A stretch of 64,000 nt of DNA from Promethearchaeota archaeon (GCA_019058445.1 JAHPZA010000004.1:434136-498135), one strand, 5' to 3'. Positions 17,850 through 60,685 are shown, numbered from the stretch's first letter. Translations and numbers: made by a program. Notes: a model not told the origin generated them from the letters alone.

Positions 17850-18197
17850 TAATTCTTCTAATTTTTTACTTAAATCCTCGAAAGAAATTTCAGATCACTT
17901 TTGTTTATGATTTTTAAGTTTTAATGATAGGTAGGAAATTGTTGAATTGAATTTAAAATTATTTGTAGGAAACCGATCAGGCGTGATTAATTACGTGGAA
18001 AAAAACCGAAAACATTCATAATATGAGTATAGAAAAGATCTCAATCGATCATTACTTAAATATTGCTTGCGACGAAATTCGTCAGTGTTCTAGAAAAATA
18101 GAATCTAAACTCTTTTATAGCAATCAATAACTCAATATCTTAATATCTAGAATCTAAAGAAAATCAATTTAAATTATAAAAACACGGGGTTTTTATT

Positions 18198-19193
18198 ATT
18201 AAGAAAAGAGCTATAGCAATTATTATTATTTCATGTTTTAGTATAGCTGTTATTGCAGGAGTTGGAACTTATTATTGGACGTTGAATGTTGAAATTGATT
18301 CGGACGATGATGATGATAATGATGATACACATGATTCGGGACCAAAAATCAATATTATAGACCATAATTGCGCTCATTTAGAAGATTTAAAAAGCATTCC
18401 GATTGGATGGATAAATGCTGCTAAGGCAAATTTAAATATAGCTTATGGTCATACATCCCATGGGAGTCAATTAACCACTGGAATGGATAATTTGGATCCT
18501 TTTATGGGGGGAAATGATGTTTATATTTATGGATCAGATGGAGGCGGAGATGATACGAAACTTGAATTTTACGATTATTATGGTGGATTCGGGGGTGCTT
18601 TAACAACAACCGAGGCTCATGATCTTGGCAATCCAAATGACGATGCATGGGCGGCTGCTACTGAGGAGTATTTAGACCATCCTAGTAATCCCGGAACGAA
18701 CGTTATAATGTGGTCATGGTGTAATATAGGAGGTCACAACATTAATGCCTATATTACACATATGGAATATCTTATTTCAGCCTATTCTGCGGGGGGTTCA
18801 AAAGGGAGGACGGTTGCAACGGAAGTTACATTCATATTCATGACTGGGCACGTAGATGGGCAAGGAATAGGAGGAACAAATAATTTACAGAATGAACTTA
18901 TTCGGGATCATTGCAGGACCCACAATAGAATATTATTTGATTTTGCAGATATAGAAAGCTATGATCCTGATGATAATTATTTTCTTGATAGAAATGTGAA
19001 TGATGATTGCAGCTATGATGGGGGAAATTGGGCAATAGAATGGCAAACCACTCATAATGGTGTTGATACTGAACCAAATGGTGGAAAATGGTATTCATGT
19101 TCTTCAGCTCATTCCCAACCTTTAAATGCCAACTTAAAAGCATATGCTTGTTGGTATTTATTTGCGATATTAGCAGGTTGGGATGGGAACTAA
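18198..19193 (+). CDS. N-terminally anchored/secreted hypothetical protein (possible hydrolase)
   Basis: ORF from 18282 extends in frame through a signal-like KKRAIAIIIISCFSIAVIAGVG segment to ATT at 18198, behind GGGGT; Asp-rich linker; motifs HTSHGSQ, MWSWC, FMTGH, FDFADIES. Confidence 0.7.
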   Translation: MKKRAIAIIIISCFSIAVIAGVGTYYWTLNVEIDSDDDDDNDDTHDSGPKINIIDHNCAHLEDLKSIPIGWINAAKANLNIAYGHTSHGSQLTTGMDNLDPFMGGNDVYIYGSDGGGDDTKLEFYDYYGGFGGALTTTEAHDLGNPNDDAWAAATEEYLDHPSNPGTNVIMWSWCNIGGHNINAYITHMEYLISAYSAGGSKGRTVATEVTFIFMTGHVDGQGIGGTNNLQNELIRDHCRTHNRILFDFADIESYDPDDNYFLDRNVNDDCSYDGGNWAIEWQTTHNGVDTEPNGGKWYSCSSAHSQPLNANLKAYACWYLFAILAGWDGN

Positions 19194-19246
19194 TTAAAAA
19201 TGAATTGAGGTTGCAAAAATTTCCGATATCCTAAAATATTTCGAGT

Positions 19247-20416
19247 TTAATTTAAAGGAGGTTTACTTTTAGCCTCTGTTTTCTTTTCCTTTTCAATCTT
19301 AAATGGTTTTACAGGTTTTGATTCGTCAAATGCTGAATTGCACACCCAGCATGCATTTTCTAAATTACTTAATGCGGTGGAACAATCTACGCAATAAATC
19401 GCCTCGCAATTCGGACAGATATAGGTAAGCCTTGATGTTTTACCTTTACAAACTAAACATATCTTTTGTTCTTTATAAAATGTAATCTCTTCTTCAGTTA
19501 ATTTTTTGGGTTTAATTTGAGTAATATGACTCATAAAATCCTGTAGTTTATCCATTTTCATTCTTTTTATTCCTAATAATTCTATTTCATGTGATTTTAA
19601 TACATTTATTTCGCGAGAAATGGCATACAGAAGCATAAAAACATAGAGAGAAATAGCAACTAAAATATACATTAAGATAAAGAGGGATGGTTGATATGTA
19701 AAAATCACATATAAGAGAGCAATGATAACGATTGAAGATATAGCATTTAGGGCTTGCTCTATTATTCCTTTAGATATAGCAATAAGTGTTCCAAGAATAA
19801 AAAACAGTGCTGGAAATGAAGGAGATATAATTTTTAATTCTTTTACCATAAAAGTAGCGAGAAAATATCCAATCCATAAGAGGAGGACTCCTATCAATGT
19901 ATGGGCGGTAATTGTCTGAAAATCCCTCCTAGAGCGTTTAGAATATAACAAAAATAAAGAAAAGAGAACTAAAATGATAATCCCTAGAGCAATCCAAAAG
20001 AAGCTCATTTCAATAATGATAATGACTAAAAAGAAAAAGCTTAAGAGGGTCATCAAATATTTATTCCGTCTTGTAGCTTTTTCAAATGTAAAAAAGAATA
20101 AAATAAATCCTATAAAAACGCTAATATATCCCCCATGAATTAAAATCTCATATGTACTGGTAGTATTAGTAAAATTACCGTAATATGAATGACCAGAATA
20201 ACTTCCGCCTATAAAATAGCTACTAAAATATTCAAATATTCTTGCAGTTGCGAGTCCAAAAAAATTAAATGCAAATCCATGCATCATCAATCTTTCGCTT
20301 TTTGATTCCCTATAATATCCGCTATATAAGTAATATATGCCGCAAAAAATTAGAATAGCTATTACTATCGACCAGATAAACCGATTAAACGGATCAAAAA
20401 TTATATTCTCTGTTAT
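19247..20416 (-). CDS. Multi-pass membrane protein with C-terminal 8-Cys RING-like zinc finger
   Basis: CLVC...CPNC...YCVDC...CWVC; frame open upstream of TTG 20290 through another TM helix to ATA 20416 behind GAGGGA. Confidence 0.75.
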   Translation of the reverse strand: MTENIIFDPFNRFIWSIVIAILIFCGIYYLYSGYYRESKSERLMMHGFAFNFFGLATARIFEYFSSYFIGGSYSGHSYYGNFTNTTSTYEILIHGGYISVFIGFILFFFTFEKATRRNKYLMTLLSFFFLVIIIIEMSFFWIALGIIILVLFSLFLLYSKRSRRDFQTITAHTLIGVLLLWIGYFLATFMVKELKIISPSFPALFFILGTLIAISKGIIEQALNAISSIVIIALLYVIFTYQPSLFILMYILVAISLYVFMLLYAISREINVLKSHEIELLGIKRMKMDKLQDFMSHITQIKPKKLTEEEITFYKEQKICLVCKGKTSRLTYICPNCEAIYCVDCSTALSNLENACWVCNSAFDESKPVKPFKIEKEKKTEAKSKPPLN

Positions 20417-21186
20417 TTCAAATCCCTCATCATATTTTTTCTTTTTTCATTATAGAATATTCCCACATGTGTTAAAAAAAGCTTCTTAGTCCATTCGGGT
20501 AAGACAAATCCTGCATAGAATTCAACTGAACTTAATATTAAAATCAATCTAGTAATTGGTAAAGTGATGTAATTAAGCGGAACTGAAGCATCTAATAGGG
20601 CTCCAATAAGAAAAGATAATAATCCTATTAGAATTAATTTTCCTTTTAATTTAAGTTCTGGATCGTCAGATTTTAACAGATCTAAACTAAAAAGCATTCC
20701 AGTAATTAAGAGAATAATAAACACAGAAAGAATATAAAAAATTAAAAAGGCTTTATATTGGACATCTACGATTCCTTGAAGTTCACCGAGTAGAGTGATA
20801 TCTGTAAACAATAAATAAAAGAATATTATTTCGAATACAATTCCATAAATTGAAGCGATAATTAAGATTGATTGTTGTTTGTTTTTATACATTAAGTCAG
20901 TGATCCCGGCAAGCCAAATAACTATGAGTAAAGGGATTAAAACATCTCCAAATATCAAATAGATTTGAATTCCAAGACCTTCACCTGTTGCGAGAGCCAC
21001 TAAAAATGAAATACTGCTTGGATACCAAGGAGATGCGATTCCCATCCAAAATATTCCGATTAAAAGAAATTCTCTTTGTTTATATTGGAAATACTTCGAA
21101 GCAATATTGATCCCTACGATGATATTTGTGGTAACAATAATAATACTGAGGGTTCCATTTAAATAATCGAGGGGTTCTAGGATCAT
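20413..21186 (-). CDS. Stand-alone ~7TM membrane protein (paralog of 12980-13726)
   Basis: About 7 hydrophobic helices; same conserved motifs as 12980-13726. Confidence 0.75.
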   Translation of the reverse strand: MILEPLDYLNGTLSIIIVTTNIIVGINIASKYFQYKQREFLLIGIFWMGIASPWYPSSISFLVALATGEGLGIQIYLIFGDVLIPLLIVIWLAGITDLMYKNKQQSILIIASIYGIVFEIIFFYLLFTDITLLGELQGIVDVQYKAFLIFYILSVFIILLITGMLFSLDLLKSDDPELKLKGKLILIGLLSFLIGALLDASVPLNYITLPITRLILILSSVEFYAGFVLPEWTKKLFLTHVGIFYNEKRKNMMRDLK

Positions 21187-21338
21187 GAACGGATTTCCTC
21201 TAGTGTACCTTCTTGTATAAATATCATTATATGAATCTGATATTTAAATGTTAAAGTATTGTGAACAAGAATTTATGGAGAGGAAATAAAAGAAATAAAA
21301 GAGAAGTAATAATTAGAATATGTTTTTAAAATAATGTC

Positions 21339-21869
21339 TTATTGAGAAGAAGAAATGATCTTTTTCTTTTTTATTACATAAATTATGATTCCTATGGACA
21401 GCACTAACGAAAGCATCATAATTTCTACCTGATATCCGGGTATCTGGGGTAAATAATATCGTGAGAGTTTCTCATTTGCTTCCATTTTGAAGAAATCTGG
21501 ACCATTTTTTTGGAGGATTACTTGTAGATAGTAGATTTGATCGTCTTCGGCAGTATAATTAATATGCGGTTTTGTACCGGCGTCATGAGCCACTTTATCC
21601 TTATTTATATCGCTGTCGATGGAATTATCCATGTTTACATGTGTTTCAGTTGGGCGTTCATCAAAAAGATAAAGATGAAAATAGCCATCTTCCCGTGCTT
21701 TTAAATCAACTTTAAGCTCATCATCTTCTTCTAGCTCCACTAAAAAAAAAAGAGAATTTCCATCATTCATTTGATCTTCAAACACAAATTTAGTTTTGGC
21801 AAGCGAATACGTAACTGGAAATAGCAGCAAGAATAGAATAGATGCTAAAAAAACCTTATAATAATTCAT
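21339..21869 (-). CDS. Small surface protein with IPGY-TM-basic C-terminal sorting signal (Loki-CTERM-like)
   Basis: Signal peptide; PPC-like beta domain; C-terminal QIPGY, TM helix, KKKK. Confidence 0.75.
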   Translation of the reverse strand: MNYYKVFLASILFLLLFPVTYSLAKTKFVFEDQMNDGNSLFFLVELEEDDELKVDLKAREDGYFHLYLFDERPTETHVNMDNSIDSDINKDKVAHDAGTKPHINYTAEDDQIYYLQVILQKNGPDFFKMEANEKLSRYYLPQIPGYQVEIMMLSLVLSIGIIIYVIKKKKIISSSQ

Positions 21870-21929
21870 TATACCTTAAATAGAGTTTTTTTTTAAACTT
21901 AATATTAATTATAAAACCATTAACTTTTA

Positions 21930-22427
21930 TTAATTTTTTAAAATTTTATTTCTAGCATAATTAATTAGCCCTTCAGCAGAAATAAGTTCTTGCAGGAATT
22001 CTGGCATCTTATTAATCCTATATAGTTTATTTGTAGTTATATTAGTAATAATTCCCTTTTCATAATCAATTTCTAACTCATCTTGAGTGTTTATCTCCTC
22101 AATTTCTTTTAATTGAACTATCGGCAGTCCTATATTAATGGCATTTCTAAAAAAGATCCTAGCAAATGAAGGTGCTATAACACACTTAATTCCAGCAGCT
22201 TTAATAGCTAAAGGGGCTTGTTCCCTACTAGAACCACTTCCAAAATTACTATTTGCAACAACAATTGAGATATACATTTCTTTTTTCTTCTGATGAAAAT
22301 CAGGATCAAAATCCTCAAAACAGTGAGCAGCAAGATATTCTGGATCGGAACTGACTAAATGTCTTGCTGGAATTATTAAATCTGTATCTAAATTTTTTTT
22401 ATTGTATTTTATTACTTTTCCTCTCAT
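21930..22427 (-). CDS. leuD: 3-isopropylmalate dehydratase small subunit
   Basis: LDTDLIIPAR, NFGSGSSREQAP, SFARIFFRNAINIGLP. Confidence 0.92.
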   Translation of the reverse strand: MRGKVIKYNKKNLDTDLIIPARHLVSSDPEYLAAHCFEDFDPDFHQKKKEMYISIVVANSNFGSGSSREQAPLAIKAAGIKCVIAPSFARIFFRNAINIGLPIVQLKEIEEINTQDELEIDYEKGIITNITTNKLYRINKMPEFLQELISAEGLINYARNKILKN

Positions 22428-22447
22428 TTTTTTTAGCCTCATTAAGT

Positions 22448-23722
22448 TTATAAGTATTCTGGTGAAGTAATATAACCTCTAATAGCAGAAGCCGCAGCAA
22501 CAGCCGGACTAGATAAATAAACTTCACTTTCTACATGACCCATTCTTCCGATAAAATTCCGATTAGTGGTTGAAACTGCTCTTTCTCCGGCAGCAAGAAT
22601 ACCCATATATCCGCCCAAACATGGTCCGCATGTTGGTGTTGATACTACCGCTCCAGCATCAAGAAAAATTCCAATTAAACCTTCTTTTATGGCCATAAGA
22701 GATATCGCTTGAGTTCCAGGAATGATAATGCATCTTACTTTAGGATTTACCTTTTGATTTCTCAAAATTTTAGCAGCGATTCTTAAATCTTCAATGCGGC
22801 CATTAGTGCATGAGCCAATGACACTTTGGTTTATTTCAATCTTCATGCCATCAACTTCAGAAATGGGCTTAGTATTTTCAGGTAAATGAGGAAATGAAAC
22901 CTGTGGTTCTATTTTTCCACATTCAAACTCAATGATATCATCATATTCAGCATCTTTATCGCTTGCATACTTTTTATAACTAAATTTTCCAATATTTTCT
23001 AAGTAGGTTTCAGTAATTTTATCTGGAGCAATAATTCCATTTTTTCCGCCTGCTTCAACTGCCATATTACACATAGTAAATCGATTTGCCATTGATAGAT
23101 TTTCTATAACTTGTCCAGTAAACTCCATGGCTTTATAGGTTGCGCCATCTACACCTATTTTACCAATTGTATATAAGATTAAATCTTTTCCTGAGATCCA
23201 TTCATTGAGCTTCCCTGTATAAATAAATTTGATTGAATTGGGAATTTTAAACCAACATTGCCCTAAAGCTAAGGCTACACCTAAATCAGTGGAACCTACC
23301 CCTGTAGAAAAAGCTCCAAGAGCGCCATAGGTACACGTGTGAGAATCTGCACCTATAAAAAGTTCTCCAGGTAATACTAAGCCTTGTTCTGGAATTAAAC
23401 AATGTTCTATGCCAACGCGTCCTATTTCAAAATAATTTACGATCATTTTTTCATGTGCAAAATCTCTTAAAATTTTACATTGTTCTGCAGATGCTACATC
23501 CTTATTAGGGGTAAAATGGTCGGGTGTTAGTATAATTCGATTCTTATCGAACACGCCTTTTCCGGTTCCTTCTACGACTTCATTGAAAACTTCTATAGCT
23601 ATAGGAGCTGTGATATCATTAGCTAGACATTTATCAACATTTGCAAGGATAAAATCACCAGCAGAAGCATTTTTGTTATCGCAGTGATCACGTAGAATCT
23701 TTTCTGTAATTGTATATCCCAT
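22448..23722 (-). CDS. leuC: 3-isopropylmalate dehydratase large subunit
   Basis: [39 protein letters not shown]; homoaconitase activity not excluded. Confidence 0.92.
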
Positions 23723-23877
23723 TTAATCCAAACCAATATAAAGTTAAATTTAAGTTATGTTTTTAATCCTTATCAATAATACATTCTATAAATCTTTTAT
23801 TCATTAAAATGAACAAGATTGAGATATTTCTATAAGATAAACAATTAAATTGGTTTTATAGATTAGCTCTTCAATTT

Positions 23878-24318
23878 CTAGTAGAATTTTACATTGAAAC
23901 GAGAGCGAATTTTTTTCTTATAAAAATGATCAAGATAGAATAGAATACCTATAAAAAAACCTACAAACATCCAAGCAAGAAGTATAAGAATATAAAAATT
24001 TATTTGATAAAGAAAAAATGTTAAAATAAATAAATAAGATAATAATCCACTTAAAAATATAAATAATAAAATTCTTCCAATTATCTTATTTAATTTAACG
24101 AAATATTTTTGATCATTATTGTTAAGTGAGTTAAAATGTCTTGGACAAAGTCTTGCCTTGATGATGCTTTTAGCGCATTTATTACAATACATCGTTTCAC
24201 ATATTATACATTTAACATATGATGGACGAGGATCCCTCCATCCTCTTGCCTTTAGTGTTTTCCCACATTTAGAGCATTTTCCTACCACTGTACCTGCGAT
24301 GATAGCTGCAAATATCAT
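23878..24318 (-). CDS. Zinc-finger protein with two C-terminal TM helices
   Basis: CSKC, CIIC, YCNKC, LCPRH, followed by two hydrophobic helices. Confidence 0.65.
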   Translation of the reverse strand: MIFAAIIAGTVVGKCSKCGKTLKARGWRDPRPSYVKCIICETMYCNKCAKSIIKARLCPRHFNSLNNNDQKYFVKLNKIIGRILLFIFLSGLLSYLFILTFFLYQINFYILILLAWMFVGFFIGILFYLDHFYKKKIRSRFNVKFY

Positions 24319-24585
24319 TGATTTTGCAAAATATACTTTAGAATTGTGATTATAAGAAAGAAAAGAGTGTTTTGATATAAAATATTTTTACTATAAATAG
24401 GTTTCAAGTCTTATTAATTATTTGTATAGGAGTGTAGAAAGCTAAATTAAAAAATAAATTGTATTTTAAATTTTTATTCCTTTCTATTAATATCATAAAA
24501 TATGCTCATTAATTTATTTAAACTACCGTAGAATGGAGTCTAAATTAAACATAATCGGTAAATATTTAGAACTGGAGAAAAAAAT

Positions 24586-25752
24586 ATGCCATCAATAGCT
24601 CATTTGGTAATGGGAGGAATTATAGGGATTTGCTTGTATTATATTAGCGATAAAAAATTTTCGAAAACTCATGTGTTTATTCTATTTTTAGGAAATTATG
24701 TGGGACCAGATGTAGGATGGGTTCTAGGAATAGGGCGTTTTAGCCATTCCCTCGTGTTTTGGCCCGTTTTTGCGATTGGTTTAGCATATGTCTATCATTA
24801 TTTTACCAGATTTACACTTAGAATTAATGGGATTAAAGACATTGAGATTATTGATTTAGAACACTATAAACTTGATTATTTAAACACATACTTCTTAGTA
24901 TTAGCTGGCGGTATTATGCATCTCTATTTGGATGGTATTATGAATAAACAAGGTGAATTCCGTATTATCCCTCAAATGTCTTTCAATTCTGAAGAATATA
25001 CATGGTTGTTAGAAGATTTTGTAAATTTTGGGTATTATGGCGTTATTCGGAGTAATTTATTAATTTCAATAATTATAGGAATCTCCTTGATTTTCGGATT
25101 TGTATTCGTTTTTATCTGGTTTTTAAAAAGAAATTCCAAAATAACAGGTTTAATTGTCACTTCCTATATAATCATATTCTTGATCTTTTTTTACCTAGTA
25201 GGCTCAATTTCCACAATGTTCCATCCCGATGGAGGAGCAATAATATATGTCGCTATTTTTTGGGGAACACCAATGATATTATGTGTTTTATCAACTAAAG
25301 ATTTCAGCATTCCGCAAGAAGAAAAACAAGAAAAAACAGAAAAAAGAGTAAGAGCCACTAATAAGGGAAAGCTAAAATTGGAATTCATAATTATATGGTT
25401 GCTTTTTTTGGGAGTAGTCACTCTAATTTTCTCAATATATGGCATTATCTATAACAAGGAGATTTTAAATAGAATTTTTTCGAATTACGGTGACAGCATT
25501 TCAGAATACTTTACTTATAATGAAGTTCATTCCCTAATTATTGCTATATCCATTTTCCATTTAATTGTAGCGATGTTTAGCTTTATCTGCGGTATCGGTC
25601 TCCTATTTAAAAACGAGAGTATATGGAAGTTCACCGTATATTATCATCTCGCCTTCTCTTGGACGGTAATAGGATTAGTCATAGCATGTGCATTGAATGA
25701 GAAATCTGTAAAAAAACGGATTTTTTCTAAACAGCTTCAATTTTTAGAATAG
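24586..25752 (+). CDS. Membrane-bound metal-dependent hydrolase-like protein (YdjM/DUF457-like)
   Basis: N-terminal H, PD, SHSL, HLYLD metal-site motifs; many TM helices. Confidence 0.7.
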   Translation: MPSIAHLVMGGIIGICLYYISDKKFSKTHVFILFLGNYVGPDVGWVLGIGRFSHSLVFWPVFAIGLAYVYHYFTRFTLRINGIKDIEIIDLEHYKLDYLNTYFLVLAGGIMHLYLDGIMNKQGEFRIIPQMSFNSEEYTWLLEDFVNFGYYGVIRSNLLISIIIGISLIFGFVFVFIWFLKRNSKITGLIVTSYIIIFLIFFYLVGSISTMFHPDGGAIIYVAIFWGTPMILCVLSTKDFSIPQEEKQEKTEKRVRATNKGKLKLEFIIIWLLFLGVVTLIFSIYGIIYNKEILNRIFSNYGDSISEYFTYNEVHSLIIAISIFHLIVAMFSFICGIGLLFKNESIWKFTVYYHLAFSWTVIGLVIACALNEKSVKKRIFSKQLQFLE

Positions 25753-26650: not shown

Positions 26651-26676
26651 GATTACTTAATTTATTCATTTGTATA

Positions 26677-26692
26677 TGTGTATATATACACA
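26677..26692. promoter_or_regulatory. Perfect 16-bp palindrome between divergent TrmB-like gene and dapF
   Basis: TGTGTATA|TATACACA. Confidence 0.45.
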
Positions 26693-26770
26693 AATAAATT
26701 TAAATTATTTGAATTATAGTTTTAACTTACAAAGAGTTAATATTAATTTAATAAGTTCAAGCAAGCTGAA

Positions 26771-27658: not shown

Positions 27659-27672
27659 TAAAGGATAAAAAA

Positions 27673-28986: not shown

Positions 28987-29105
28987 TTTAAATTCTTTTT
29001 ACCTGCTTAGTCAATCTAAATTGACATCATCAAGCAGATTTTCACAGAAATGTAGAAATTCTTAAAAATGATTATGGAAATCTAATACTTAAAAATTATA
29101 ATTTT

Positions 29106-30682: not shown

Positions 30683-30785
30683 TATTTTTTATAATTTTAT
30701 CTTATAATTCCTTATTTTCAATAAATAAAAAATAAATAAGAATTGAAATATTAAAATAAATCTGTTTCTAAAAGAAATAAAATAT

Positions 30786-37123: not shown

Positions 37124-37387
37124 TTAGGCAATATTACAATTAAATTCTGAGAAAAATTTATTTAGTCTGGATGAAAAGAAGGATAATATAAGCCAAATTT
37201 ATTTTTTATTTTAAAAAAGTTTTTAGGCATACAAAATTATAAAAGTATCGATCTACAAATTCTTAAATATAAAATTTTTTTCAGTATATTCATACGACAA
37301 TTTTACCTTTATTAATATAAAAAATAATGGGGCTTCTCTGTTATTTCAAGTAGGTGTAATATTATTTAAGTCCGGAGGTGTCATAAT

Positions 37388-37771
37388 ATAGCAGCAAATA
37401 TACTCATTGTTGAAGATGACCTATCATTACAGAGGCTATATGAGATGATTTTGAAAACTTCTGGATTTAATGTAATAGGAAAAGCAAACAACGGGGAAGA
37501 AGCGGTACACTTTTATGAAACCAATTCATCAAGTTTGGATGTGATACTAATGGATCATAGAATGCCAATTAAAAATGGGATTGAAGCAACAAAAGAAATT
37601 CTTGAAAGGAATAATAAGACAAAAATTATTTTTACAAGTGCGGATAAAAGTATAAAAAAAACAGCTTTATTAACGGGAGCGATTAGTTTTTTAGAAAAAC
37701 CTTTTAGTTTTGCTGATTTAGTAAAAGAAATTGAAAAAGTTCTAAAAGCAACTAACCTCTCCGCTAATTAA
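37388..37771 (+). CDS. Single-domain response regulator (receiver)
   Basis: ILIVEDD (upstream of the track's ATG 37445), MDHRMP (phospho-Asp), TS, KPF; ATA start 7 nt after GGAGGTG, in-frame TAA at 37367. Confidence 0.9.
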   Translation: MAANILIVEDDLSLQRLYEMILKTSGFNVIGKANNGEEAVHFYETNSSSLDVILMDHRMPIKNGIEATKEILERNNKTKIIFTSADKSIKKTALLTGAISFLEKPFSFADLVKEIEKVLKATNLSAN

Positions 37772-39655: not shown

Positions 39656-39758
39656 GGGAGGGTGGTCTAGCCTGGTATGATTCTTAAAAGAAAAACGCTT
39701 TAAGTATAAATCTTGGTTTGGGACCAAGGGGCCGGGGGTTCGAATCCCCCCTCTCCCA
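39656..39758 (+). tRNA. tRNA-Pro(TGG) with 29-nt intron at non-canonical position 25/26 (39682-39710); CCA not encoded
   Basis: Acceptor GGGAGGG/CTCTCCC, anticodon arm CTTGG-TTTGGGA-CCAAG, T-arm GGGGG-TTCGAAT-CCCCC; intron bounded by a BHB motif. Confidence 0.93.
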
Positions 39759-39831
39759 TTCTTCTTTCTTATTATTCTCTTTTCCGCAGATTGAGTTGAT
39801 TTAATGAACCCATTATCAATAGAAGACTATT

Positions 39832-41622: not shown

Positions 41623-41892
41623 TTACTTTCTCATCCGTTTTAATTCCATTGTAATTGCATTCATCCTATCCGGGCATTCTACTTGAATTACATCAGTATC
41701 AGGTCCCCAAGGAAAATTACCGCCAAATTGAAGTGTACTTATCGTTGGAAAAATATCATGATAAAAAATACCACATAATCCATTTGCTTTGTGAACACTT
41801 AATTCTATTTCATCGCCCACTTTATGATGCGCACTGCAACGTCCTTTAATATCTTTAACAGTTCCTACAATTTTAAATATTTTTTGAGAAAT
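41623..41892 (-). CDS. Small Cys-containing protein (TIGR04076-like)
   Basis: VKDIKGRCSAHHKVGD...GLCG..YH.IFP...GG.FPW...CPD; first Cys lies upstream of the track's GTG, needing ATT 41892 or ATA 41895 behind AGGTGA. Confidence 0.8.
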   Translation of the reverse strand: MSQKIFKIVGTVKDIKGRCSAHHKVGDEIELSVHKANGLCGIFYHDIFPTISTLQFGGNFPWGPDTDVIQVECPDRMNAITMELKRMRK

Positions 41893-44067: not shown

Positions 44068-45141
44068 TTAGTTTAATTGCTTTTTTACTTCTTTAGCAAT
44101 TTTTTCTGTCTTTTTATCCTTGATCCAATATCGAATCTTCTTGGTTCTGAGTAAATTTTGAATTTTTTCATTTAATTCATTTAGTTTCTTTCGATCTTGA
44201 TCAGATAATTGTGGAACTTCTTCTAAAATCTTTTCTTTTACTTTTTCAATTTCTTGTTCAATAATTGGAATATCTATAGGTTCCTTTTCTCTTTGAGTTA
44301 TTCTTTTTCTCAAAATCTCTTTTATATTTTTTATCCATCCCTCAATCCAGGGAAAGGCCCCTTCTTTTTTTGGATCAATTATCTCGATATCTTTCCGATC
44401 TACAATTATTAAATCGTCAGGACAGCTGTTTTCACAAGCACCGCAATAAAAACAAGCATCTTCATTACACGCAATTTTCCCAAATTTAGCTATTTCCTCC
44501 GCACTTTCGGGTATAAACCATGATTCAACAGGACAAATATTTACGCATGCTTTGCAACCCAGAGGATCGCATTTATGGAGCATATTCTTTTTGATGATGA
44601 CTTCGCCTTCTATTGGAGAATCGACTTGGAAGCATTTTGTAGGGCATTCTTTTTGGATTTTATAAAATTCTTCGACATGATTTCTCTCTCGGACCTTTAA
44701 GCATAACTGACAGATTTCATTATTCAGATCTTCTTCACATTTTTGAAAATCAATTTTATAGAACTTTCCAATGGAAGGAAACTCATCCAGATTAATATGC
44801 CCTTCAGGTTCTATATTTTCATGAAACGCGTCTGTAGGGCATACTATAGCACATAACATACAGTAACAACATTTTTCATGATCAATTAAGAGTTTTGGAT
44901 TAGACTCGTCTAATATATTTTGGGCGATTTCAGGAATTGGACCGAGTTCAATCGCATCAACCGGACATACCATTTTACATAAACTGCATCCTATACATTT
45001 TTTAATGTCGTATGTGAGTTTTTTATTTACATCTTTATATTTCCAGTTGAGAATGAATTGATCTGGGCTAATATCTAACCCTTTTTCGATTTCTTCTTCA
45101 ATTTCCTTGTGGGCTGTATCTTCTGAAGATGTTTGCGTAAT
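44068..45141 (-). CDS. Polyferredoxin (FwdF-like 4Fe-4S protein)
   Basis: CIGCSLCKMVCP (completed only by extension to ATT 45141; in-frame TGA at 45148-50), CCYCMLCAIVCP, GCKACVNICP, CFYCGACENSCP. Confidence 0.85.
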   Translation of the reverse strand: MTQTSSEDTAHKEIEEEIEKGLDISPDQFILNWKYKDVNKKLTYDIKKCIGCSLCKMVCPVDAIELGPIPEIAQNILDESNPKLLIDHEKCCYCMLCAIVCPTDAFHENIEPEGHINLDEFPSIGKFYKIDFQKCEEDLNNEICQLCLKVRERNHVEEFYKIQKECPTKCFQVDSPIEGEVIIKKNMLHKCDPLGCKACVNICPVESWFIPESAEEIAKFGKIACNEDACFYCGACENSCPDDLIIVDRKDIEIIDPKKEGAFPWIEGWIKNIKEILRKRITQREKEPIDIPIIEQEIEKVKEKILEEVPQLSDQDRKKLNELNEKIQNLLRTKKIRYWIKDKKTEKIAKEVKKQLN

Positions 45142-52846: not shown

Positions 52847-52909
52847 ATTTTTTTTAATTAAATAATTTTAAAATAACTTTTTTTTTCCTTACTTTATACC
52901 ACTACTAAA

Positions 52910-53410
52910 TTAAGAATAATAAGAGTAGCTCTCTCTATCAAATCCGTGGATATATTCAATTACTATACCTTCAGGTCTTTGTTCAGGAGGTCTATATATA
53001 ATTTGTAAATTCGGAAAATATGCTCCAATTCCAGTTTTAGCTAAAATCATAGCAGGATGATCTGATTGTTTAAAAATTTCTTCACTTATTCTAAGAGTTA
53101 TCGCACGACATTGTTGTTCATCCCAGACTCCTAAAGAATGAATATATTCATGTAAGAGTATGTGATATGTATATGACCAGACTACTTCAAATGGTTGCGT
53201 TTCTAGAATCAGTTTTAATGGAGTTTTATTCATTACAATATCCGTTCCGGGAGGAAAATGCATTCCTCCTATAAATCCATGAGGTGTCATGCCCATTTCT
53301 GCAAGTCCTAAACTTAAACCAGCCCTATGCCTACCAGTAGTTTTTTTAACATCATTTTTCACTTTTTCAAATATTTCAGGCATTTGTTCCTTGAATTCTT
53401 GTAATTCCAT
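52910..53410 (-). CDS. Putative zinc metallopeptidase (HEXXH)
   Basis: HILLHEYIHSLG..DE. Confidence 0.75.
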   Translation of the reverse strand: MELQEFKEQMPEIFEKVKNDVKKTTGRHRAGLSLGLAEMGMTPHGFIGGMHFPPGTDIVMNKTPLKLILETQPFEVVWSYTYHILLHEYIHSLGVWDEQQCRAITLRISEEIFKQSDHPAMILAKTGIGAYFPNLQIIYRPPEQRPEGIVIEYIHGFDRESYSYYS

Positions 53411-53436
53411 AAAATCAACCTCTTTTTATTAGCCAA

Positions 53437-54261
53437 TTAGAAATCAAAAAACCAGAAATCCTTATCCTCCTTGAAGAAATCCATCATTTTAGATAGATCT
53501 TTCAATAAGGGCTCAATTGAGATCCTATTTTGAGCGCGTTCAATGGAATCCATATCTGAGTAGAACATATCATCTAATAAGTTATCGATGTCTATTCTTT
53601 TATAATATTTATTCGGATTGAAAAAAAGTGTATAAAAGATCTCTTCAATTAAATTTAGACTTTCTCTTATATTTTTTGCTTTAAATTGTCTTTTCTCAAT
53701 AGTTTCTCTTAATCTATTTCTGTATTTATCTTCTATTATGTTTTTTAATTCCGCTATAAAACACTGTTTATTTTGTAGTAAATCAGATCTTTCCAATTCT
53801 AGGTTCCTAATATTTCCCTCAATTTCTTTAATTCTTTCACCTAAAAATCTAATTTTTGCATCGGGTTGTTTAATTTTTTTATAATCAGGAGAACAGCCCG
53901 TATCCTTGAGCTGTATTATTTTACTGTCATCACTAATTTCAGAAACGTTATATTTCACACCGTAATAGTCTGGAGATATGTCGATGCTTAAAGATATATC
54001 GGTTTTTATCCGATAAGTTCCTCCCCTTTTATCATCCGTTTCAATTTTTTCAATGATTTCCTTTTCGCTTAAAAACACTAATTGGCTATGCACCGCTTGT
54101 CTTGATATACCCAATTCATTTGCTAATTCCGAAGTAGAATGGGGAACTTTAGCCAATTTTGCAAGAATTACTCTTCTGGTGGGATTTCCTAAAATTTCCA
54201 ACAAAGTATCTAAATTAATTGTTTTCTTACCTCTTTCATATTTTTCCACTTCTATTTTCAA
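53437..54261 (-). CDS. ArsR-type wHTH regulator with coiled coil (Phr/HSR1-like heat-shock regulator)
   Basis: ILGNPTRRVIL...SELANELGISRQAVHSQL; co-oriented with hsp20 and cdc48. Confidence 0.8.
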   Translation of the reverse strand: MKIEVEKYERGKKTINLDTLLEILGNPTRRVILAKLAKVPHSTSELANELGISRQAVHSQLVFLSEKEIIEKIETDDKRGGTYRIKTDISLSIDISPDYYGVKYNVSEISDDSKIIQLKDTGCSPDYKKIKQPDAKIRFLGERIKEIEGNIRNLELERSDLLQNKQCFIAELKNIIEDKYRNRLRETIEKRQFKAKNIRESLNLIEEIFYTLFFNPNKYYKRIDIDNLLDDMFYSDMDSIERAQNRISIEPLLKDLSKMMDFFKEDKDFWFFDF

Positions 54262-54293
54262 TCACTCCCTTTACTTAATAAAAATAAAAAAAA

Positions 54294-56525
54294 TTACCTA
54301 TAGAGTTCTTCAGAGGGTTCCTTCGAAGAAGTATCATAAGCTTTCTTTGCTCTATCCGCACCTTTCAGGATTTTTTGCACTGCCAAATCAAACTCATCTT
54401 TTGATATTTTAACTTTTTTCACTGATTCTGGATCGCTAGTATCAACATTATCATCTGCCAGAGTCTTTCGAATAGTCAAAAGAGTTGCTTCTTCACAGAT
54501 AGCTTGAATGTCTGCTCCTGTATAACCCTCCATATTCTCTGCCATTTTGCTAATATCTATATCATTAGCCAGAGGTTTGTTTTTAAGATGGATTTTATAA
54601 ATCTGTTCACGTGATTCTTGATCAGGCAAGGGAATTTCAACATGTCTCCCAAATCTTCCTGAACGCAACATTGCGGGATCAAGCATATCTGGTCTATTGG
54701 TAGCAGCAAGCAAGATTACATCTTTTAATCCTTCGAGACCATCCATTTCAGTGAGTAATTGTGAAACAACTTGCTCTGTCACCTGAGAGCTTGCAAATCT
54801 ACCTCTCATTCCCGCAATGGCATCTATTTCATCAAAGAAAATGATACAAGGTGCTGCAGATCTAGCCTTTCGAAATGTCTCTCTCACAGCTTTTTCGCTT
54901 TCTCCGACCCATTTAGATAAAAACTCTGGTCCTTTTACAGATATAAAATTCACCTCACTTTCATGAGCTAGTGCCTTAGCTATCAACGTCTTCCCACACC
55001 CAGGAGGACCATGGAGTAAAATACCATTTGGAGGTTTTGAATCCAAGTGTTTATAGAGTTCTGGGTACTTCAATGGCCATTCGATAATCTCTCTTAATTG
55101 TAGTCTAGCATCTTCTAATCCTCCAACATCTTCCCAAGTTTCTGTAGGTTGAGTTATTAATACCTCTCTTAGGGCAGATGGCTCAATACTATTTAAAGAG
55201 TGTTCAAAGTTTTCCATCTTTATTTGAATATTGCCTAAAATTTCAGCGGGAATTGGTTTATCTAAGTCAATTTTCGGTAAGATTTCTCTTATGGCAAGCA
55301 TTGCCGCCTCCTTAGCTAATGCTTCCACATCAGCTCCTACAAAACCATGTGTTTTTTCAGCCATTTTTTGTAAATCTACATCTGAATAGAGGGGCATTCC
55401 TCGTGTATGAATTAATAATATTTCATATCTGCCATCAGTATCAGGAACTCCAATTTCAATTTCTCTATCAAATCTTCCCGGTCTTCTTAATGCGGGATCA
55501 ATGTCATTCACTCTATTTGTGGCCCCAATAACTATGATTTCTCCCCGTCCTTCTAAGCCATCCATCAAAGAAAGTAATTGGGCAACCACTCTTCTTTCTA
55601 CTTCTCCAGTGACTTCCCCTCTTTTTGGGGCAATTGAATCTAATTCATCTATAAATATAATTGATGGTGCATTTTCTTTGGCTTCAATAAACACCTTACG
55701 GAGATTTTCTTCGCTTTGCCCATAAAATTTGCTCATAATTTCAGGACCGCTGATTGTTATAAAGTGGGCATCTGTTTCGTATGCTACTGCTCTTGCTAGC
55801 AATGTTTTTCCCGTACCAGGAGGTCCATGAAGTAACACTCCTTTAGGGGGATTAATCCCTATTCTTTGGAATAATTCGGGATGTCTAATTGGTAATTCAA
55901 TCATTTCACGTATTTTCTGAATTTCCTCTTCTAATCCTCCAATATCTTCGTAGGTTACTCTGGCTTTCTCAAGTTCAATGATTTCTTTATGGCTTTTTTC
56001 ACTCAATATGATCTTTGTATCCAAATGAATTCTCACGGCTTCCGCTTTGGGACTATACTCTACCACTACAAGATCAACTCTGCGACCCATGGCATAAAAG
56101 CTAAGGATATCTCCTTTCGTTATTACACGGTTTTCTAATTTTCTTGCTAATTGTTGAGAATTTTTAATGATTACCGTCTCTTCTAAACCAGCAAAGGTCA
56201 CTCTTGTAGCTAACGCAGCATCAATCTTGCGTATTTGTACTATATCATCTAGGGAAGTGTTTATATTCCTTCTTAAGGATGGATCCATACGGATTATATT
56301 AGTTCCCTTATCTTCTCTTCTGCCGGGATATAATAATGCGGCAGTTTTCCTCTTTGCTGAAGTTGAAGCATGAAAAATCTCTATCACATCTCCCGTTCTT
56401 AAATTCATTTCCGCCTCGACATCGGGGTCAATTCTGACAATGCCTCTTCCAGCATCTTCTTTAAATGCATCTTTTACTCTTAATTTATTCTCCTTACCTT
56501 CGTAGCCCCTTGTCACACCACTCAT
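54294..56525 (-). CDS. cdc48: CDC48/VCP-family AAA+ ATPase
   Basis: N-domain [10 protein letters not shown]; Walker A GPPGTGKT and GPPGCGKT, Walker B IFIDE/IFFDE, two SRH motifs; C-terminal LYR (HbYX). Confidence 0.97.
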
Positions 56526-56595
56526 TTTTTTTCCTCACATTACATATATTATTTTTATTATAATAAATAATTAAATTGATTAATTGAAAATTTAC

Positions 56596-57213
56596 TTATG
56601 ACCTCCATATTTTCAAAGTAGCAATTCCATTGTTCACTTCTAAATCATATTTTTTTAAAGAGGTCTTAAATGGTAAGCGAACTTCTTTAAGATATTTTCG
56701 AATTTGACTTTGTGCTGTTATGTTAATCTTGTTTCCTTCTTGATTTAAATTTAATTTGATATCTTCCTTTTCTATTCCAGGAACTTCAAGTATAATTTGA
56801 GTATAATCAGTAAAATCGTTTATTTCAGTAATAGGTTCAGCGTTATCTGATTCTTCCTCTTGCTCGGTTGGTTTCAACGCTATTTTTGAAGCATCAATTA
56901 ATTCAATACGATTTGGATGCTTTAATATCTTGAATCTTGGATCTTTTCTAAAATTAATTCCTTTTAAATACTTATTGAGCTCTTTTTCATCTATGTCCCC
57001 TTCAATCTTTATTTCTGGCTTATCCATTCCTGTCTCAAAGTGATATGACACTTTATATCCTTTTGAATGCTTCTTTTTAGGATCTAGGTGCTTTCCCATT
57101 TCTGGAAAAATATAAAAATCCATATCAAATAATTTTGAATCAAAATTAAAAAATTTCTTAAATTGGTCGAAAATATCTTCATAATCATCATAATCGTCCG
57201 AAAATTTTACCAC
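56596..57213 (-). CDS. Hsp20/alpha-crystallin small heat-shock protein
   Basis: EPITEI...LEVPGIEKEDI...RKYLKEVRLP...NNGIATL. Confidence 0.85.
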   Translation of the reverse strand: MVKFSDDYDDYEDIFDQFKKFFNFDSKLFDMDFYIFPEMGKHLDPKKKHSKGYKVSYHFETGMDKPEIKIEGDIDEKELNKYLKGINFRKDPRFKILKHPNRIELIDASKIALKPTEQEEESDNAEPITEINDFTDYTQIILEVPGIEKEDIKLNLNQEGNKINITAQSQIRKYLKEVRLPFKTSLKKYDLEVNNGIATLKIWRS

Positions 57214-57222
57214 CGTTTTTTT

Positions 57223-57258
57223 ATTGTCATTTAAATATTGTCAAGAAAGTATTGACAA
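57223..57258. promoter_or_regulatory. Heat-shock operon operator candidate
   Basis: TTGTCAA-N7-TTGACAA perfect inverted repeat (57238-57258) plus a further TTGTCA half-site at 57224; half-sites 14 bp apart. Confidence 0.6.
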
Positions 57259-57351
57259 ATTCACAATAAAAATATGTGAATTCAATTATAAAAACTTATC
57301 GTTAATTAAAAAAAGCAAATTTAAGGATTTAATTTGAATAAATTTCTAAAT

Positions 57352-58410
57352 TTATAAACCTTTTTTTACTTCTTCAATAACTTCATGCGTTCGAAGTAGT
57401 AATTCATAGGCAACTTCTGGGATTTGCCAACCTTGTAAGCTACAATCAGGACCCACATATTTTAATCTATCATCATATAATTTTATTGCTTCTAGTAAAT
57501 TTTTTCTAATTCTCTCTTTGGAATCAATTAAGCTTAGCATACCCTCATATGTTTTAATCTCATCCCATGTTTTTCCTAGATCAATTTTTTCTCCAATAAT
57601 GTTATCAATGTTTGTTCTGGTTATGCCTACCCGAATAAATTTGTCGTGTTGCTCTAAATCTTTCCTTGGAATTTTATTAGTTGGATCGCTTGCATATTCG
57701 CAGGTTAATACTTGAATATTTTTTGCTTGCAAGGGCACGTATGCTTGCTTTAAGGAATGAAGGTGAATTTGGTTTATAGTATTAATCCCCTCAAGGGATT
57801 TATCAAATATTTTTATGAGATCATCATGGTTAACGTTAAACAAGTCTACATATCCAAAGGAGGGCTCATCAATAGAAATTACTGAGGTCTGAACATATTT
57901 GTTATTAACTATGGAATTTTTTAAAAAAGAATTGACAGATTTTGCTAAATTTAGAGCTAAATCAGGATAAATGGTAAAATTATGTTTTTTAATGTAAAGC
58001 TCTATTGGTCCCGTTATACAAATTTTTACTTGAATGATTTTTCCTTCTTTTTGAAAATGTTCTTTAGCAAATTCATTTATAACATACATTTCAGGGATAT
58101 ATGCTTTTTGAGGGTCAATTAAATCAGGTTCAGTTTCATAATCGGCTATAGGTTTCAAGAATTGGACGATCATATCCATAATTTGAGGATAATTAATAAT
58201 TTCTAGCCCTGATTTCAATTTAAATTCCATTGCTTGGCTAATCGGATTCATAAAATAATTCCTAATACCACTATGTTGCAAAAGATATTCTTTATTATCG
58301 CTTACAAGTGCTTTATATGACGTCCAGTAAAATTGCTCAAATTTTTCCTTTTCAATATTTTCCGACAAAGGAAATCCGCCAACATCATCATATAGGGGAA
58401 AATTATCCAT
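57352..58410 (-). CDS. Core (single-barrel) methionine synthase, MetE catalytic-domain family, MesC-like
   Basis: DDVGGFP, YPQ, ITGP, IDEPSFG, IHLH, GPDC; lacks the N-terminal folate-binding barrel. Confidence 0.75.
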   Translation of the reverse strand: MDNFPLYDDVGGFPLSENIEKEKFEQFYWTSYKALVSDNKEYLLQHSGIRNYFMNPISQAMEFKLKSGLEIINYPQIMDMIVQFLKPIADYETEPDLIDPQKAYIPEMYVINEFAKEHFQKEGKIIQVKICITGPIELYIKKHNFTIYPDLALNLAKSVNSFLKNSIVNNKYVQTSVISIDEPSFGYVDLFNVNHDDLIKIFDKSLEGINTINQIHLHSLKQAYVPLQAKNIQVLTCEYASDPTNKIPRKDLEQHDKFIRVGITRTNIDNIIGEKIDLGKTWDEIKTYEGMLSLIDSKERIRKNLLEAIKLYDDRLKYVGPDCSLQGWQIPEVAYELLLRTHEVIEEVKKGL

Positions 58411-58736
58411 CTTAAATTTGAAGATCTCTTATTATTTTAGTTTTATGAATACATTAAATAGTTTTTTCTAAAAAAAATAATTTTAGAAATATCGATAAAA
58501 CTTACTAATATAAACAATATTTTATTTATAAATAATTAAGAAGAGAAATATCCATCTATAACATAAAGTATCCATAAATATTATAAAAATGCTACTAATT
58601 CTGGACTTGAAAGAGATTAAGTTAATTAGAAGAAAACTCAATATTAATCAAAAAAAGATTTAGTTGAGATACTACCATATAAATCTCGAATTAGAATTCA
58701 AATCAAATACTTTTACTGAAATTTTCCGTAATTACT

Positions 58737-59591
58737 TTATAATTTAACTGTACTTGTTAGCAGTTCATTCATACCGCGTTTATGGAATTCTACTATTTTA
58801 GGTAAAATTGTCATCATAGCTATAGGTACATCAATGGGTAAGGGGATTCTAAAAAAACTCTTTTTATCATCAATAATCATTAATCCAAATATATTTTTTA
58901 AATTCGTTGCTATTTCTTTAAAGATTTGTAGGATATAAGGATCAGTTATATCCAATTGAGCAAATTTAGAAATATTATTTAATATATTACTAAAAATTTC
59001 AAAAGTAGGAGGTTTTAGTTGATAAATAGCGATCTTTGGCATTTTCTTTCTTAAAATACTCGATGAATAATCATCGGAAGATATTATTTTTATAGATAAA
59101 TCATTATTACGTTCATTAAGACGCCTAACAATTCGGTCATTGAAATAATTTAAAGACAAAAATATATCTAGTGATACCTTTGCATTATCAATTAAATAAT
59201 AAAGGTGTTCTAACAGATTTTCTTCCTTGGCTATACCAATAAATGGGATATCTTCAGACTCTTCAGTGCTGTGGATTTCATTGATTATTTTTATACTCTT
59301 TTGTCCTATTTCTTGTATTTCTTTTGTGTATTTTAGGATCTTTTCTTGTAGAATTTCACTCGATTTAATTTTATAGTATTTTTTAGCTTTACTCCCGATT
59401 GGGATAATATCAACAAATCCTTTTCTCTCAAGTTTAATCATTGTTTCATAAATTTTCGGTTGGGGAACATTGCTATATTTATGCAATTCACTTGCGTTAA
59501 GAATATGATACCGAACAAGTGTCTCGAATGTTTGAGCTTCATATTGAGTAAAATTTAACTCTTTTAGGAGGTTTTCTAATTCTTCGTTCAT
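58737..59591 (-). CDS. TrmB-family transcriptional regulator
   Basis: FTQYEAQTF...ASEL...VPQPKIYE...LERKG; C-terminal IIDDK domain. Confidence 0.88.
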   Translation of the reverse strand: MNEELENLLKELNFTQYEAQTFETLVRYHILNASELHKYSNVPQPKIYETMIKLERKGFVDIIPIGSKAKKYYKIKSSEILQEKILKYTKEIQEIGQKSIKIINEIHSTEESEDIPFIGIAKEENLLEHLYYLIDNAKVSLDIFLSLNYFNDRIVRRLNERNNDLSIKIISSDDYSSSILRKKMPKIAIYQLKPPTFEIFSNILNNISKFAQLDITDPYILQIFKEIATNLKNIFGLMIIDDKKSFFRIPLPIDVPIAMMTILPKIVEFHKRGMNELLTSTVKL

Positions 59592-59649
59592 TTTCCAATA
59601 TTTTTGCTATTTCAAAATTTTAAATTTTTAAAAAATTTTAAATAATTTT

Positions 59650-59683
59650 ACTCCTTTAGTAGTATAACTACTAAAGTAGTATA
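59650..59683. promoter_or_regulatory. Tandem/palindromic operator between divergent TrmB and ABC transporter
   Basis: 17-bp direct repeats ACTCCTTTAGTAGTATA / ACTACTAAAGTAGTATA; perfect inverted repeat CTTTAGTAGT-ATA-ACTACTAAAG (59654-59676). Confidence 0.65.
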
Positions 59684-59713
59684 TAAATTTTATTATAAAA
59701 ATTGTTGATTATT

Positions 59714-60685
59714 ATGTCAGGTCTTGCAATTGAAGCCATAGGAGTTAAAAAGGAATTTGGAGGGAAAAGTAAGAGTCCATTTACTAAGGCTCAAGTAGTT
59801 AAAGCCCTAAGAGGAGTTGATTTTCGAATAAAAGTTGGTGAAAATTATTGTTTACTTGGTCCTAATGGTGCTGGAAAAACCACATTTATACGGTGTATTC
59901 TTGGTCTCTTAAAAGCGGAAGGATCGGTAAGAGTATTGGATCATATAATGCCGGACGAACGAAACAAAATAATCTCTTCTATTGGATATATGCCTCAAGA
60001 ATTAAGTTTATATCCTGATTTATCAGTAAAAGAGACTATGCATTTCTTTGGTCGAATATTTGGTCTAAGAAATCAGGAACGGAAGGATTCTGTAAAAAAA
60101 TTGCTAAATTTTTTCTTATTGAAACAATGGAAGGATAGTAGAGTTGAGAACTTATCAGGTGGAATGAAAAGAAGGTTATCTTTGGCATGTACACTTGTTC
60201 ACAATCCGAAACTCTTAATATTAGATGAACCTACTATTGGTGTTGATCCTACATTACGATTAACTTTCTGGGACTACTTTAAAGAATTGAATGAACAAGG
60301 AATAACAATTATAACTACTACTCATGTGATGGATGAGGCTGAAAAGAGTAGGTTAATAGGTTTTATGAGAGAGGGTAAGTTAATTGCGGAGGGAACTTAT
60401 CAAGATCTTAGAACAAAAGTACCTGGAAAAAGAAAATTAGTAGTAGAGACGGATTTAGAAAGTTCAAAAAATTTAGCCGATATCATCCATACGAAATGCG
60501 CCTGCCAAACCCAATCAAAAGGTTTTAAACTTGAAGTTTTTTATGATGATGAATCAATTATCGATGAGATATTATCTCAAATTAGAGAACATACTAATAT
60601 ACACTCAATTCAAACAGTTTTACCCAATTTGGAAGATACTTTTATATATTTTTCTAAATCGAGCAAAGAGGTGCAAGAAAACTGA
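59714..60685 (+). CDS. ABC-2 type transporter ATP-binding protein
   Basis: GPNGAGKTT, LSGGMKRR, ILDEPT, TTH. Confidence 0.95.
   Translation: MSGLAIEAIGVKKEFGGKSKSPFTKAQVVKALRGVDFRIKVGENYCLLGPNGAGKTTFIRCILGLLKAEGSVRVLDHIMPDERNKIISSIGYMPQELSLYPDLSVKETMHFFGRIFGLRNQERKDSVKKLLNFFLLKQWKDSRVENLSGGMKRRLSLACTLVHNPKLLILDEPTIGVDPTLRLTFWDYFKELNEQGITIITTTHVMDEAEKSRLIGFMREGKLIAEGTYQDLRTKVPGKRKLVVETDLESSKNLADIIHTKCACQTQSKGFKLEVFYDDESIIDEILSQIREHTNIHSIQTVLPNLEDTFIYFSKSSKEVQEN

Follow-up and report, generated by a model that had tools for sequence, protein, structure and literature searches.

Where does translation start in genes that have an in-frame stop codon upstream, and a conserved N-terminal coding region lying before their first ATG, GTG or TTG? 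This question is raised by a stretch of 64,000 nucleotides from a Promethearchaeota archaeon (GCA_019058445.1 JAHPZA010000004.1:434136-498135; G000:C4:434136-498135 in our own handles), hereafter referred to as the window, i.e. the whole stretch of DNA that was analysed. The genome (Asgard, Lokiarchaeial type) comprises 4.61 Mb on 10 contigs and has a GC content of ~30%. We report that seven genes in the window are very probably intact and translated from near-cognate start codons. Specifically, AUU is the proposed start codon of cdhD (encoding the delta subunit of CO dehydrogenase/acetyl-CoA synthase) and of the genes for an FwdF-like polyferredoxin, a TIGR04076-family protein and a membrane-anchored protein at 18198; AUA that of the genes for a CheY-like receiver domain (REC) protein and for a multi-pass membrane protein at 20416; and CUG that of an ABC-2 permease gene (Table 1).

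Anatomy of the proposed start sites

The 3' end of the 16S rRNA of this genome reads GGATCACCTCCT (also given as the tail GGAUCACCUCCU-3'), and the full Shine-Dalgarno (SD) complement of the tail is thus AGGAGGTGATCC. We express the spacing, s, as the number of bases from the T of GGT in the SD motif to the start codon; for ATG starts in this genome the optimum is s 6-9 with the mode at 8. The seven genes share the same anatomy: an in-frame stop codon is positioned 0-10 codons upstream of the proposed start; s is 7-9 at 7/7 sites, i.e. within the ATG optimum; and the first canonical codon (ATG, GTG or TTG) appears 13-56 codons downstream, after or inside sequence that the protein needs. At four sites the SD match consists of 4-7 contiguous paired bases including at least three G (GGAGGTG, GAGGTG, AGGTGA and GAGG), and cdhD has the 6-nt element GTGATC, while no SD motif is present ahead of the downstream canonical codons.

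Use of the downstream codons would remove the ILIVEDD strand together with its acidic pair (REC), the first cysteines of CIGCSLCKMVCP (polyferredoxin), a signal anchor (18198) and a transmembrane (TM) helix (20416), as well as the N-terminal profile parts of the TIGR04076, ABC-2 and CdhD proteins. Wherever a family exists (five genes), the Pfam or NCBIfam profile runs into the extension. Moreover, for all seven genes the orthologs either keep a near-cognate codon at the aligned position or have ATG or TTG instead. The stops, SD motifs and ATT, ATA or CTG codons that a preliminary description of the window had listed for these genes were all recovered in the sequence. Its figure of 6-7 among about 55 genes holds as to the sites; for the total, we count 47 open reading frames (ORFs) of at least 90 codons in the window rather than 55, so the proportion is 7/47.

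Table 1. Genes with proposed near-cognate start codons and other features (positions refer to the window unless another contig is given; G, C, L and f are our handles for genomes, contigs, loci and families)
Feature	Coordinates	Strand	Proposed start	In-frame stop upstream	SD element and spacing	First canonical codon
cdhD (CO dehydrogenase/acetyl-CoA synthase delta subunit)	16695-17888	-	ATT 17888-17886	TGA 17897-17895, within SD element	see next row	ATG 17849 (start of the public call)
SD element of cdhD	17893-17898	-			GTGATC, complementary to 16S rRNA 3' end; aligned spacing to ATT 8	
Membrane-anchored protein, unknown family	18198-19193	+	ATT 18198		GGGGT 18186-18190 (weak)	TTG 18282
Multi-pass membrane protein, paralogous family	19247-20416	-	ATA 20416-20414	overlap with upstream stop (A-TAA)	GAGG 20428-20425	TTG 20290
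CheY-like receiver domain (REC) protein	37388-37771	+	ATA 37388	TAA 37367-37369	GGAGGTG 37374-37380, 7 nt gap, s 8	ATG 37445
tRNA-like element	39656-39761	+				
TIGR04076-family protein	41623-41892	-	ATT 41892-41890	TGA within SD element	AGGTGA 41904-41899, 6 nt gap, s 8	GTG 41820
FwdF-like polyferredoxin	44068-45141	-	ATT 45141-45139	TGA 45150-45148	GGTTGA 45153-45148 (weak, SD-like, contains the TGA)	ATG 44973
ABC-2 permease	60682-62199	+	CTG 60682	TAA 60655-60657	GAGGTG 60668-60673, 8 nt gap, s 9	ATG 60730
aIF1 (SUI1) gene, outside the window (L214/L215)	G000:C10:8794-9123			TGA, 9 codons to first zinc-knuckle Cys		
aIF1 near-cognate loci, other families	L307, L325, L332, L342		CTG			
aIF1 near-cognate loci, other families	L313, L315, L326, L327		ATA			

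Conservation of the start codons and extensions

Ortholog alignment, named in the preliminary description as a way to probe the proposed starts, places ATG at the near-cognate codon in some relatives and reveals that ATT, ATA or ATC is kept in others. The richest data are for cdhD. At its aligned start codon, the 23 orthologs in the family comprise 18 with ATT, two with ATA and two with ATG; distant orthologs have ATG or TTG at this codon. A GTGA(T) element with its in-frame TGA is kept ~6 nt before the ATT or ATA in about 22 genomes. Over the 12 extension codons, i.e. from ATT to the first ATG, the diversity by codon position is 0.21/0.02/0.45, and because the variation is dominated by third positions we infer that the extension is translated. 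The match to the CdhD profile (NF003378) begins at residue 9, the first ATG being residue 14.

For the polyferredoxin, 43/79 orthologs have no ATG, GTG or TTG before CxGCxxC, and all of these keep the residues K-I-S/T and ATT, ATA or ATC as the codon; a few orthologs have an ATG 0-2 codons away. The first canonical codon in the window copy encodes the M inside CIGCSLCKMVCP (residue 57), and a Fer4 domain at residues 44-65 spans it.

The REC gene has its first ATG (residue 20) after ILIVEDD, and residues 5-115 of the protein match positions 1-110 of the Pfam profile Response_reg. An ortholog with 93% identity (G003) retains ATA ATA, and none of its codons ahead of IVEDD is canonical; two close relatives, L097 with ATA and L098 with ATG, differ only at that codon. 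A near-identical CheY protein in JGI/IMG is called as 127 aa with MAANILIVEDD at its N-terminus, which is the N-terminus that we predict. Similarly, the closest ortholog of the TIGR04076-family gene (L127) carries an aligned ATA, with canonical codons absent over 40 codons, while paralogs start with ATG, TTG or GTG at most three codons from the aligned position; profile positions 7-90 correspond to residues 11-88, and the first canonical codon is residue 25.

With respect to the two membrane protein genes, the first canonical codon of the 18198 gene lies past the hydrophobic membrane anchor. Its ATT aligns with ATG in two homologs (L144 and L145); among other homologs, ATT follows directly upon a TAG in L143, ATT is present in L149, L151 and L152, and ATC in L147. 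The first TTG of the 20416 gene lies past a TM helix, and the N-terminus reads I-T-E-N-I-I-F-D-P in the window vs M-T-E-V-K-I-W-D-P in homologs. Its paralogs include one with ATT (L155), one with TAA followed by ATT (L160) and one with TGA followed by ATA (L170).

Both orthologs found of the ABC-2 permease (G007 and G031) have ATG exactly at the position of the CTG, and their N-termini, MKFSNI and MKLFNI, compare with (L)KLSNI in the window. The ABC2_membrane_2 profile begins at residue 8, and the first ATG is residue 17.

cdhD and the 18198 gene, both ATT-started, diverge around an AT-rich spacer of ~300 bp (17886-18200). The CTG of the permease gene overlaps the TGA (60683-60685; C-TGA) of the upstream ATPase gene, so that the starts at 20416 (ATAA, 20413-20416) and 60682 (CTGA, 60682-60685) both overlap the stop of the gene upstream, like the common ATGA overlap. 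The 20416 gene belongs to a large paralogous family (L155-L183) with a conserved N-terminal x-I-W-D-P-x-E-R motif, for which neither Pfam nor NCBIfam gave a match, and several members independently start at ATT or ATA directly after a stop.

Genome-wide use of ATT, ATA and ATC behind SD motifs

ORF-genes of at least 90 codons were called throughout the genome (3771 in total, covering 87% of it), and the stretch upstream of the first canonical codon in each was searched for orphan SDs, defined as at least five contiguous matches with at least three G and with ATG, GTG and TTG absent in all frames within reach (n=129). We use ATH for ATT, ATA and ATC. Behind the orphan SDs, in-frame ATT and ATA occur 18 times each at exactly s=8, compared with ~2 when the spacing differs and 2 when the frame does, and the composition-matched control codons AAT, TAT, TTA, AAA and TTT gave no in-frame peak. 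Altogether, ATH accounts for 38/52 in-frame codons at s=8 vs a background of 15% in such regions (binomial p = 4.5e-21), and in the same reading phase for 22% at s=5 and 8% at s=11; a Poisson calculation for the genome-wide peak gives 8e-23. The SD-aware tally suggested in the preliminary description thus yields an ATH peak at the spacing of ATG. In 26/38 cases a TGA is found in frame inside the SD, since GGTGA at s=8 generates it automatically. Within the pre-canonical regions the figures are 3.4% for ATA, 2.9% for ATT and 3.9% for ATC vs 0.6% for AAT, 0.6% for TAT and 1.2% for TTA; CTG is weakly enriched genome-wide.

With s at 7-9, ATH is found in 65 genes having an SD of at least five bases and in 105 having one of at least four, corresponding to a background-corrected excess of ~53-71. 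The scan recovers 4/7 of the validated window genes, and scaling by this recovery gives roughly 125 ATH genes, i.e. about 3% of the genes. Overall, we put near-cognate starts at roughly 2-4% of the genes, that of aIF1 included. A coding-potential mixture model, the discriminating power of which is low, gave ~127 genes with coding-like sequence ahead of the first canonical codon. Among SD-led starts with s 7-9 we counted 234 ATG, 81 ATH (uncorrected), 73 TTG and 14 GTG. Hence, ATH starts are commoner than GTG starts, and the frequent TTG starts noted in the preliminary description are borne out by these numbers for first canonical codons. The overall ranking, ATG > TTG > ATA/ATT > GTG, is in line with the AT-richness of the genome. 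Compared with ATG, ATH is preceded by longer SDs (at least six paired bases in 42% vs 28%) and is mostly uncoupled from the gene upstream (3% vs 34% positioned at most 5 nt from its stop).

In relatives, the genes flanking the studied loci (480 ORFs at 203 loci) contain 20 orphan SDs, which is consistent with the above and too small a sample for counting. A 1.14-Mb sample of a complete genome from the sister family (G026) has 8 ATH vs 46 ATG at s 7-9, a weak signal that is not statistically separable from the rate in G000; for this reason we do not link the usage of ATH to the start codon of aIF1 (see below). The ATH habit covers the whole GTDB family and, as the weaker peak is present also in the G026 sample, probably extends beyond it.

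The gene for aIF1 and start-codon stringency

Up to the zinc knuckle of aIF1 in G000, the sole canonical codon is a GTG that falls within the C-V-C motif, and the gene most likely starts at an ATT six codons before the first Cys. All orthologs in the family (24/24) lack ATG, GTG and TTG before the knuckle and have ATT (22) or ATC (2) 6-7 codons ahead of the Cys, in some cases one codon past a stop; their SD spacing is ~11, which is above the optimum. The stretch from the bounding stop to the knuckle Cys is only 7-10 codons long. Among the aIF1 genes examined from other Asgard families, an ATG 4-5 codons ahead of the Cys serves as the start in about half, and a GTG in several more. A canonical codon is missing in genomes of at least four of these families, where CTG (f6, 2/2; f9, 2/4) or ATA (f17, 3/3; f11, 1/1) is positioned at s=8 behind AGGTG, AGGAGG or AGGAG. 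In three complete sister-family genomes aIF1 has ATG or TTG. The near-cognate starts in other families look like recurrent evolution.

In vitro, aIF1 of S. solfataricus rejects AUU-programmed complexes (as reviewed in PMC4705826), and because of this a near-cognate start of the aIF1 gene would amount to the arrangement known from bacterial infC. The preliminary description ascribed relaxed start selection to weak aIF1-type discrimination. Near-cognate starts that are lineage-wide and tied to SD motifs agree with our data, while weak discrimination finds no support in them: ATH starts are a minority, they have longer SDs, the codons are conserved, and aIF1 itself has ATT or ATC in 24/24 orthologs. 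Our analysis rather suggests that discrimination has been retained for tuning or feedback and not lost. At cdhD, the polyferredoxin gene and aIF1 the near-cognate codon has been held over long evolutionary spans though ATG is one mutation away, and since it is conserved across many genera it has likely been selected as an expression setting. It is conceivable, and put forward here tentatively as a possibility that we consider rather doubtful, that the Lokiarchaeial AUU, AUA and AUC starts (rarely CUG) form a selected class, a "stringency regulon" of ~100 genes with an output set by the level of aIF1.

As to how initiation at these codons might proceed, we envisage that the SD duplex with the 16S tail would bring the codon into the P site with the same spacing as for AUG, i.e. 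7-9 nt past the U of GGU as judged from the spacing statistics. Initiator Met-tRNA would then pair with it despite a single mismatch, in the third base of AUH or the first of CUG. Initiation would probably be less efficient than at AUG, a cost that the longer SDs may offset. Moreover, because aIF1 itself appears to be AUU-initiated, its level may exert feedback both on its own synthesis and on the whole gene set, like infC in bacteria.

Alternative explanations

The public gene calls for the contig use the downstream codons, and most genes in this genome are without a strong SD, so starts that lack an SD do exist. The seven proteins could therefore begin at the first downstream ATG, GTG or TTG, the in-frame stretch above being an untranslated leader. 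Proteins made in this way would, however, lose the essential strand, cysteines, anchor, TM helix or profile positions described above; the extensions show conservation at the protein level, that of cdhD varying mainly in third positions; orthologs have ATG exactly at the near-cognate codon; and the downstream codons have no SD before them. Taken together, this leaves a leader little to recommend it. Errors in assembly or base calling, or fresh mutations that inactivated an ATG, would make the genes mis-assembled or pseudogenes, and the polyferredoxin gene offers a specific case: one extra A in a run of six would bring an upstream, out-of-frame GTG into frame. This frameshift was considered and rejected, since it is the G-rich element and ATH that orthologs conserve, and not the A run or the upstream codon. 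For six of the genes both errors and pseudogenes are excluded because independent metagenome-assembled genomes (MAGs) carry a near-cognate codon or ATG/TTG at the aligned position. MAGs from many studies have ATH at the same codons (polyferredoxin 43/79, cdhD 20/23, the REC ortholog, aIF1 24/24), purifying selection acts on the ORFs, which are intact, and random errors cannot make a genome-wide spacing peak. For the set as a whole we consider errors scarcely credible. The permease CTG is a separate matter: it is present in this genome only, with ATG in both orthologs, and that it is an error is unlikely yet deserves to be kept in mind.

Recoding, whether by a programmed frameshift out of an upstream ATG, GTG or TTG in another frame, by readthrough of TGA or TAA out of an upstream ORF, or by editing of the RNA to AUG, might be considered given that TGA is the bounding stop at several sites and that some SD-like elements contain an out-of-frame GTG or TTG. 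But any GGTGA placed at s=8 brings an in-frame TGA with it, and the sequence above the bounding stop is AT-rich, unconserved and, in orthologs, closed by more stops. We saw neither a slippery site nor an upstream ORF that is conserved, but rather conservation of the G-rich element and ATH at a fixed distance, and we regard recoding as very improbable. An altered or dedicated initiator tRNA, or initiation by elongator tRNA-Ile, would permit the N-terminal residue to be Ile. We keep this explanation among the rivals because no initiator tRNA was identified in the MAG: tRNA-Met/initiator was not found in G000 with ARAGORN (with and without introns), a whole-genome search with Rfam RF00005 or three pattern searches, which detected 16-23 tRNA genes (16-24 tRNAs in another count), many or most of them with introns. 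On the other hand, ATG, TTG, GTG, ATT, ATA, ATC and CTG share the same spacing and interchange in orthologs, which fits one initiator reading near-cognate codons, and no tRNA resembling an initiator but bearing a different anticodon was seen. An unusual initiator is consequently improbable.

Some observations nevertheless weigh against initiation at near-cognate codons as outlined here. The case, which we take to be strong, is built on sequence comparison. The SD matches are weak at 3/7 sites (GGTTGA, GGGGT and GAGG). The CTG start of the permease gene is found in this genome only, and CTG 60682 may stem from a base-call error or from a recent substitution, possibly a harmful one. The proportion in the window, 7/47, is 4-5x the estimated genome-wide rate, meaning either that the window is unusually rich or that the genome-wide estimate is low, and the estimate from coding potential is rough.

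Comparison with known systems and implications for annotation

The NCBI translation table 11 lists ATT, ATA, ATC and CTG as possible starts. In E. coli the confirmed AUU/AUA starts are those of infC and pcnB only (bioRxiv 10.1101/063800), and in S. aureus AUA or AUU starts, all with extended SDs, are known for infC (AUA), cvfC1 (AUU), ccpN (AUA) and citZ (AUA) (PMC13009471). The bacterial AUU/AUA starts resemble those proposed here in their normal spacing, longer-than-average SDs and conservation in orthologs, and in being missed by gene finders; moreover, in E. coli reporters the four codons that perform best after AUG, GUG and UUG are AUH and CUG. They differ in that the initiation apparatus here is of the archaeal, eukaryote-like aIF1/aIF2 type and that of bacteria uses IF3, and in number: 2-4 genes in the model bacteria vs ~65-125 genes here (2-3%; about a fifth of the strongly SD-led starts), the latter predicted from sequence. 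Likewise, infC (encoding IF3) and eukaryotic eIF1, which is autoregulated through a poor context (PMC4705826, PMC6237735), share with aIF1 that the gene for a fidelity factor has a poor start site. Compared with infC, the feedback at aIF1 is deduced from the codon only and aIF1 is unrelated to IF3, while eIF1 has a poor Kozak context around an AUG and aIF1 here a non-AUG codon.

For archaea, a 2020 review of initiation considers AUG, GUG and UUG only, and reports, for the annotated Lokiarchaeon, that SDs are not prevalent (PMC7531240). A ribosome profiling study of Haloferax volcanii assigned ~30% of the putative alternative initiation sites to near-cognate codons, and left these sites aside because they might be false positives (PMC7261190). 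SD-led initiation and several permitted start codons are common to the archaeal set and the present one; in contrast, the Haloferax near-cognate sites are not the main starts of conserved genes, and those reported here are the sole possible starts of conserved full-length proteins. Our literature searches yielded no paper that deals with ATT/ATA starts or with aIF1 autoregulation in Asgard archaea, an absence that is not proof. The mechanism is familiar; unfamiliar are the domain of life in which it occurs, its scale, how deeply it is conserved and the link to aIF1.

The preliminary description anticipated systematic N-terminal mis-annotation, and the exact truncated products of all four testable genes (REC, cdhD, polyferredoxin and ABC permease) are indeed in the public collection for the contig. 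Because Prodigal-type calling allows only ATG, GTG and TTG, a few percent of the proteins in Asgard MAGs are expected to have their N-termini truncated or missed. The losses involve signal anchors, catalytic residues and metal ligands, and would bias analyses of domains, localisation and eukaryotic signature proteins. Initiation as proposed here would also widen the accepted set of archaeal start codons and demonstrate that eIF1/eIF2-type machinery can use AUH routinely given an SD. Finally, the recurrent near-cognate start of aIF1 offers a testable model for stringency control, which is central in eukaryotes, in their archaeal relatives.

Unusual tRNA-like genes

ARAGORN proposed two further intron-bearing genes in this genome, a tRNA-SeC (C1:27020-27126) and a tRNA-Pyl-like gene (C9:655982-656074). 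In the window, a tRNA-like element with the T-arm GGGGGTTCGAATCCCCC is positioned between the REC and TIGR04076-family genes. An Rfam scan of the element gave no family above the threshold; RF00005 matches it partially with 31.7 bits, and ARAGORN, with introns allowed, predicts an odd intron-bearing tRNA. Probably, this element is an intron-containing or split tRNA gene.

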